DNA of 64,000 bases from Eledone cirrhosa (Eukaryota). The notes below the pieces were generated by a model that did no database searches, was not told the DNA's origin, and was given only the letters and a program-made list of their open reading frames with translations. Shown piece by piece: positions 2,040 to 2,523 of the stretch; position 1 is the stretch's first letter; the number at the start of each line of letters is the position of its first letter. The stretch spans positions 7,254,001 to 7,318,000 of the forward strand of contig OZ024753.1 in the NCBI GenBank assembly GCA_964016885.1, written 5' to 3'. A program made the position numbers and the translations under genes.

Positions 2040-2523
2040 AGCGAAGGAAAAGTGGTAAGGAACCAGGTGGACCATAACGCACCAAAGTACTCAATACTTA
2101 GGGTAGTAGAGTGGGTAATAGGAGTAAGTAAGACCCCGGCGGCTGAGCTCAAGCCGTTTCGACGGCTAATTCTGTACAGAATTAGCCGTCGAAACGGCTT
2201 GAGCTCAGCCGTCGGGGTCTTACTTACTCCTATATATATATATATATATATATGAAAAGTTAAGGGTGGAAGCAGTGATTCTTTGCTTAAACTTTAATCT
2301 GTTATTTTAATAAATATCTATATATATATACAACATAGAGGGTGTGGTAAGATACTAGATGGACCATAACGCACCAGAGTACTCTATACATAGAGTAGGT
2401 AATAAGAAAAGAGTTAGAATCCCGACGGCTGAGCTCCGGCCGTTTCGACAGCTAGATTCCTTCTGATCTAGCTGTCCAAACGGCTGGAGTTCAGCAGTTA
2501 GGGTCCTGACACTTTTCCTATTA
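2040..2523. mobile_element. Two palindromic (TA)n-embedded elements (family H3) carrying half-hammerheads; also at 36860-37020, 37390-37525, 57503-57695 and 57717-57835
   Basis: Shared body GGTAAGGAACCAGGTGGACCATAACGCACC plus a ~115-bp terminal palindrome. Confidence 0.7.

Follow-up and report, generated by a model that had tools for sequence, protein, structure and literature searches.

The short palindromes that occur as young insertions in (TA)n tracts of the Eledone cirrhosa genome derive, to judge from sequence comparison, from the front end (the 5′ leader) of a Penelope-like retroelement (PLE). Each consists of two head-to-head copies of this leader, probably made from an RNA that starts inside loop II of the element's own hammerhead, by separate priming from both ends of the cut target and by subsequent end joining. 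Thousands of such junctions are young, very short and readable to the base, which allows self-priming and two-ended priming to be separated by counting. So large a junction set brings an open step of PLE transposition within reach of testing and suggests a promoter within a ribozyme, with a likely transcription start inside a hammerhead mapped from DNA alone. It also illustrates that a MITE-looking repeat can arise abortively from a retroelement overlooked by ribozyme searches.

A palindromic insertion and its relatives in the window

The window, i.e., the whole stretch of 64,000 nucleotides analysed here, carries a 192-bp insertion at 2041–2232 between (TA)62 (1917–2040, the target microsatellite on the left) and (TA)10 (2233–2252). 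It includes a 116-bp palindrome (2118–2233) with one mismatched pair (fold z = −19.6; equally stable shuffles 0/200), and is extended by 77–78 nt on one side only. Numbering the arms from the A of TCAGT in the parent's loop II (+1), the tail-bearing arm (2041–2177, minus strand) corresponds to parent leader +2 to +138 and ends at end site 2, while the tail-less arm (2174–2232, plus strand) corresponds to +2 to +60 and ends at end site 1. The one-sided tail (2041–2117, minus strand) thus runs from end site 1 to end site 2, and the arms meet head to head at 2174–2177, where both share GTAC, a self-complementary microhomology. On the plus strand, 2179–2218 matches a type I hammerhead's 3′ half: the stem II 3′ strand GAATTAGCCGTC (2179–2190), GAAAC (2191–2195, with the core GAAA), stem III as GGCT..AGCC (2196–2210), GTC (2211–2213, the GUC of the RNA) and the stem I 3′ strand GGGGT (2214–2218). 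A sequence-only reading of this DNA had named the same succession of stem II, GAAAC, stem III and GTC, and had noted that the CTGANGA strand was missing; both points are borne out, as the 5′ core strand is absent from this insertion and no CTGANGA lies upstream of the 3′ half in any window copy. Rfam returned no hammerhead among the 150 of 162 weak window matches listed, which include a weak tRNA-like match at 63851–63908 (31.2 bits), and tblastn found no ORF remnant in the 64 kb. The spacer at 2253–2320, between two of the window's elements, is the end of another TA-associated repeat and recurs in the left flank of locus L004.

Five more copies of the palindrome family lie in the window. These are an older two-armed copy of a diverged subfamily with its tail on the left (2344–2524, stem II ATCTAGCTG), a two-armed copy whose arms are each truncated beyond stem II, with the tail on the left (36859–37023), a single tail-bearing arm starting at +2 (37386–37525, plus strand), a two-armed copy with the tail on the right and a short insert at the junction (57503–57697), and a single arm of the same diverged subfamily with an internal deletion (about 57720–57830, minus strand). 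The two single arms, like the one-sided tail of the 192-bp insertion and its (TA)n flanks, had gone unlisted in the sequence-only reading, which had assigned one layout to 2399–2523, 36938–37020 and 57503–57617. All three places indeed hold two-armed copies, but the arms at 36938–37020 meet near GAAA, leaving no stem II hairpin, and the plus-strand arm at 2399–2523 reads CAAA for GAAA. The window also contains a second hammerhead family, in which CUGANGA is intact and stem II is of the GUCACA/UGUGAC type, at 23480–23590 (minus strand) and 60830–61080, where the pair at 60.8–61.1 kb is likewise arranged head to head.

Parentage in a Penelope-like element

The parent was discovered through the flanks of fetched loci, which contained longer, non-palindromic copies with a unit of 3.4–3.7 kb (a tandem with a 3,707-bp unit at L123, about 3.4 kb at L122). 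The L123 pseudo-LTRs demonstrate the parentage, as 0/59 positions differ from the tail-less window arm and 4/137, for either pseudo-LTR, from the tail-bearing arm. The L123 pseudo-LTR leads into a single ORF that unites a reverse transcriptase (RT) with a GIY-YIG endonuclease at the C terminus, showing the motifs QFDIESYY and YRDD followed by VIY..YIG with R, H, E and N; this particular copy has an early stop and a frameshift. Among 30 ORF-leading copies, 23 are tandems (pseudo-LTR), 5 belong to one array and 2 (L236, L250) begin at the loop II start point described below, with a short inverted arm attached. An approximately 274-bp tandem array (L253–L257, G000:C3:214146639-214147884) is built from the part of the PLE leader between the middle of loop II and the first codons, and so presents tandem half-hammerheads without the core strand.

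The nearest Atlas clusters of the parent ORF scored 0.95–0.99, with HTH_animal and RVT_1 annotated on part of the cluster members, while a Pfam scan gave 0 families for 3/3 pieces of the ORF and a PDB sequence search did not recognise it. Using the Hydra-clade motifs set out in section 11 of PMC8557442, we found SDKT, a CNCPDRSSC linker, and CNLC and CKH around E/N, with CCHH absent and one Cys between VIY and YIG; the N-terminal motif is RWR (RWK in the Hydra clade) in 10/10 copies translated. The family also has the layout that marks PLE members, an inverted 5′-truncated copy with one tail. The parent can on these features be classed as a Penelope-like element, and its motifs would file it as Hydra-like.

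The parent hammerhead

Upstream of the 3′ half, the parent reads ACCCC-TTGANAA-GTTCGGCTATTT, a pattern with 2,266 genome matches, in the first 100 of which position 8 is A in 98; position 7 takes all four bases. The parent pseudo-LTR accordingly holds both halves of a hammerhead, with a U3–A8 core (UUGANAA), and a search for CUGANGA misses it for this reason. The 67 distinct whole-ribozyme copies comprise 54 with U3–A8, 12 with a mismatched C3/A8 and 1 with C3–G8. The C3/A8 core occurs among the parent subfamilies L104, L127, L132, L137, L144, L208, L234 and L237, suggesting that catalysis may be relaxed in some lineages. The expectation that master elements carry CTGANGA was therefore right in that whole-ribozyme parents exist and wrong as to their core, which is UUGANAA, the canonical CUGANGA parent having been found once in the genome. 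CTGANGA lies within 30 nt of a 3′ half in 42 matches; the 30 examined were junction inserts, flanks or fusions, and we rejected them as parents. In one fusion (L040:1501-1539) the core strand of the second (CUGANGA) hammerhead family is joined to the 3′ half of the palindrome family.

Helices I–III were paired in 91.5% of 776 cells, compared to 25–52% in slid controls (37 of the 67 copies aligned), and in stem II three pairs have both partners changed, for the most part where one group of subfamilies differs from a second, hence in few independent events. The diverged parent, of the subfamily at 2344–2524, was located by predicting its stem II strand and searching with the resulting pattern (128 matches; control 0). 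The base of stem II has two T and one T unpaired; minimum free energy folding of the parent did not yield the hammerhead, and Rfam gave no hammerhead match on it. With its 3–8 pair, G12 A13 A14 and NUH, the parent has the core of a type I hammerhead and is a predicted ribozyme. Cleaved RNA as the main template was rejected, since copies starting at the cleavage site form no peak (2/62 tail-anchored copies, one of them an edge artefact).

Copy number, subfamilies and insertion target

At least 12,980 short palindromes are present in the 3.0-Gb genome (exact pattern, a lower bound), and about 546 kb of flanks of 60 loci, a sample biased toward TA-rich DNA, contained 27 further loci. The best 40 genome matches to the window copy are 99–100% identical across all 192 bp, arms included, and 29/29 fetched top matches differ from it at 1–2 positions. 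The arms are in consequence subfamily-specific and not, as had been supposed, locus-specific. (TA)4 or more flanks the insertion on both sides in 79/90 loci and on one side in 10 more, under a pattern that demanded TATAT on one side; any target-site duplication would be hidden within (TA)n. The short palindromic products are dead ends, with half a ribozyme, no promoter and no ORF. Among their 52 arm substitutions (L140–L229), G>A and C>T together number 20, and transversions away from G or C reach a similar frequency (8 G>C, 7 C>A, 4 C>G and 4 G>T).

Two fixed 3′ ends, one of each per insertion

The 3′ ends of the arms are fixed and bimodal, with roughly half of the arms meeting (TA)n after +60 and half after +138, and TAT follows both end sites in the parent. 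Each insertion typically combines one of each: 25/28 untargeted close head-to-head pairs have one short and one tail arm (p = 3 × 10−5). The same combination occurs in 10/13 long inverted pairs, 2 more of which have part of a tail and 1 two tails.

A common start inside loop II

The 5′ ends were placed in the first 90 of 497 matches, whose search pattern limits total insertion length. In these 90 loci of the window's subfamily, 173/180 arm starts fall within −6 to +16 of the A of TCAGT, which upholds the prediction that palindrome centres cluster in loop II. The starts spread over ~20 nt (60/180 at +2, 14/180 at +1, 28/180 upstream of the A), and because most arms begin a few nucleotides downstream of the A, trimming must be assumed. 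The diverged subfamily, which has a different loop II, starts at the same YAGT (−3 to +2 in L004, L030, L041, L075, L225 and L228). Where an arm begins exactly at the A, a non-parental G precedes it in 11/14 cases (p = 4 × 10−5 against 25%), whereas long copies have C or T at −1 in 100/100 cases among the matches listed and G at −1 occurs in 1/67 whole-ribozyme copies (L238). A G-bearing parent was therefore rejected as the origin of the extra base for the window's subfamily. Genome-wide, 4,142 arms start with G, and A is found in 15 of the first 100 of 4,266 matches with A or C at −1; this is an unclean control, C being parental in some subfamilies, and only its A share was used.

TCAGT is an initiator (Inr) consensus, and a cap-templated extra G marks complete 5′ ends. 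The transcript, capped, is therefore likely to begin within loop II, with the A of TCAGT/TTAGT. The core strand is reached by 8/92 arms in the untargeted sample and by 8/62 tail-anchored copies (6 window copies and 4 from one array included), and a transcript start inside loop II would by itself explain why the strand is missing from the copies. The proposal that CUGANGA had been overwritten, and the ribozyme disabled, by the inverted arm does not hold, as the short copies never contain the core strand to begin with and the leader itself would never have it. The supposed left strand of stem II is likewise the inverted arm, the natural strand being the parent's upstream one given above.

Variable junctions

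The 90 loci have 55 junction types, 48 of them seen once; the commonest (23 loci), also in the window's subfamily, is the GTAC junction of the window. Other junctions are blunt, share 1–2 nt or hold inserts, several of which are copied from the arms. Arms starting with G on both sides, 0–2 nt apart, were found at 5 loci among the first 100 of the 4,142 matches, a sign of independently made arms. The arms are more alike within than between loci (2.6 vs 5.1 differences in the variable block, 0/10,000 permutations, 28 pairs), with subfamily variants shared by both arms. Two claims of the sequence-only reading stand on these counts, namely that the inverted junction is made afresh at each insertion and that arms match within loci; variable junctions together with matched arms indicate that a junction arises at insertion, its arms coming from a single source subfamily. 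The likeness of the arms establishes this common subfamily and not a single RNA molecule; just 2/52 substitutions are mirrored.

Origin of the head-to-head copies

In the route that we consider probable, a capped transcript would start at the A within loop II and the element's endonuclease, as an RNP, would cut (TA)n. Both 3′ ends of the cut would prime at two UAU-containing sites, and where the 5′ (leader) copy of these sites is used, the two cDNAs would run off the capped RNA end after 60 and 138 nt, the run-off often adding a C opposite the cap. Host end joining would then link the two cDNA 3′ ends via microhomology or small templated inserts, and long inverted copies would arise by the same route from the 3′ copy of the priming sites. 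Twin priming in L1 and the joining signatures of polymerase theta are familiar background for these steps.

Self-priming, in which the first cDNA folds back and primes the inverted arm, was the model of the sequence-only reading and is the published one for a related case (PMC3846280). It would account for arms mirrored by subfamily; the parent sequence ATTCAGTACAGAAT is a near-palindrome that permits a fold with a 6-nt loop, and 5/90 junctions fit such a fold-back, but the mirror-image junction is equally common (5/90). The minimum hairpin loop is 3 nt. Three or more unpaired nucleotides are present at 44/85 centres (5 loci without anchor dropped), while the other 41/85 have 0–1 and hence no usable fold-back loop, although perfect centres could have been perfected after insertion. 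A fold-back must also copy the tail-bearing cDNA, so that no arm could extend further 5′ than the tail arm, whereas in 26/90 loci the short arm does (tail arm longer in 31, equal in 33). The inverted arm moreover has a fixed end, which lies 78 nt before that of the other arm. Snap-back at the stem II hairpin in particular is already largely refuted: its predicted product, an inverted arm followed by the whole of loop II, gave 0 matches against 12,980 short palindromes when sought with a separate pattern, the patterns behind the 497- and 12,980-match sets being unable to show it. Taken together, self-priming appears improbable. Amplification of a fixed, MITE-like palindromic unit, its centres decaying later, is more improbable still. 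Many copies are 99% identical, centre included, and one junction is common to 23/90 loci; the recurrence of that junction is expected, however, because the self-complementary GTAC adjoins the start point, whereas 48 of the 55 types are single and many junctions contain either a non-parental G or stretches of the parent that extend past the shared centre, neither of which deletion can supply. Long copies have the same two ends, and in place of the terminal inverted repeats with uniform interior of a MITE we observed a one-sided tail and 55 junctions in 90 loci, so the refuting possibility of an inherited MITE-like terminus was not borne out. A non-LTR retrozyme, described as tandem monomers with a whole hammerhead in each (10.64898/2026.07.22.740005), does not fit either, the copies being head-to-head halves.

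A further explanation retains two-ended priming but sets it on the 3′ pseudo-LTR of a long RNA, the common 5′ end arising in loop II where RT stops or the RNA is cut. Untemplated bases can be added by RTs, the starts spread over about 20 nt, and their clustering sits atop a conserved stem II with three pairs changed on both sides, all of which would suit such a stop or cut. On the other hand, a hairpin would be expected to stop RT at its base (+18) and not once unwound, the start tracks the YAGT motif even between subfamilies that differ in loop II, the extra base, read in sense, is G in most cases, and ORF-leading copies also start at the loop II point; we therefore regard this explanation as unlikely, if less so than self-priming. 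If transcription does start in loop II, the promoter would lie inside the element's own ribozyme and the mRNA would have half a hammerhead at the 5′ terminus and a complete one at the 3′ terminus. It is conceivable, albeit doubtful, that 3′ cleavage removes the downstream priming sites and forces RT onto the leader, the ribozyme thereby deciding, as a switch, whether transposition is full-length or ends in abortive palindromes of 190 bp, and that the 3′ core strand could complete the leader half by long-range pairing.

Relation to known systems

Pseudo-LTR hammerheads, the U3–A8 core, inverted copies, tails and (TA)n targeting of PLEs are already published, and the origin of the inverted copies and one-sided tails is described as unresolved in PMC8557442. 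Neither leader-only palindromes nor two-ended priming of PLEs appeared in the titles and abstracts found (subscription papers and Repbase lay outside the search). As described in that source for Hydra-clade PLEs (Craig et al. 2021, PMC8557442), the parent has a C-terminal GIY-YIG, DKT, a CxCX5C linker, CxxC and CxH motifs and no CCHH, together with a (TA)n target, a pseudo-LTR hammerhead and an inverted 5′-truncated copy with the tail at one end. It differs from the clade in reading RWR for RWK, in its unit of 3.4–3.7 kb (generally <3 kb there) and in its tail of 77–78 nt (30–40 there); about 90% of arms here are leader-only pieces. Its U3–A8 core and 30–36-nt loop II contrast with the Hydra hammerheads in File S2 of that paper, all of which are CUGANGA.

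The Poseidon element PAc of Anolis (Frangieh et al. 2024, PMC11167929) similarly has two internal RT start sites that bound a tail downstream of the hammerhead, an AT-rich target and uncleaved RNA as the main template, and its protein cleaves and extends both DNA strands in vitro. The PAc start sites lie in the ORF and come from in vitro work, unlike the leader sites here, and the main text of that paper neither assigns one site to each strand nor explains inverted copies thereby. Our junction counts tie one of the two start sites defined in vitro (PMC11167929) to each strand.

The U3–A8 core is a published covariation of PLE hammerheads (PMC4209133). The minimal hammerheads of Schistosoma Cercyon PLEs (Cervera and de la Pena 2014, PMC4209133) share with the parent this covariation and a long helix II, and are reported there with opposite-strand pairs 100–700 bp apart and a palindromic loop III; here, by contrast, helix III has a stem of 5 bp and loop II is long, and the majority of copies consist of the 3′ half, which is invisible to a hammerhead descriptor. 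The inverted pseudo-LTRs of Adineta Penelope elements (Arkhipova et al. 2013, PMC3846280) likewise have head-to-head junction palindromes, an optional tail and an Inr-like motif in the pseudo-LTR; they were explained there by self-priming, whereas the junction counts here favour two separate cDNAs.
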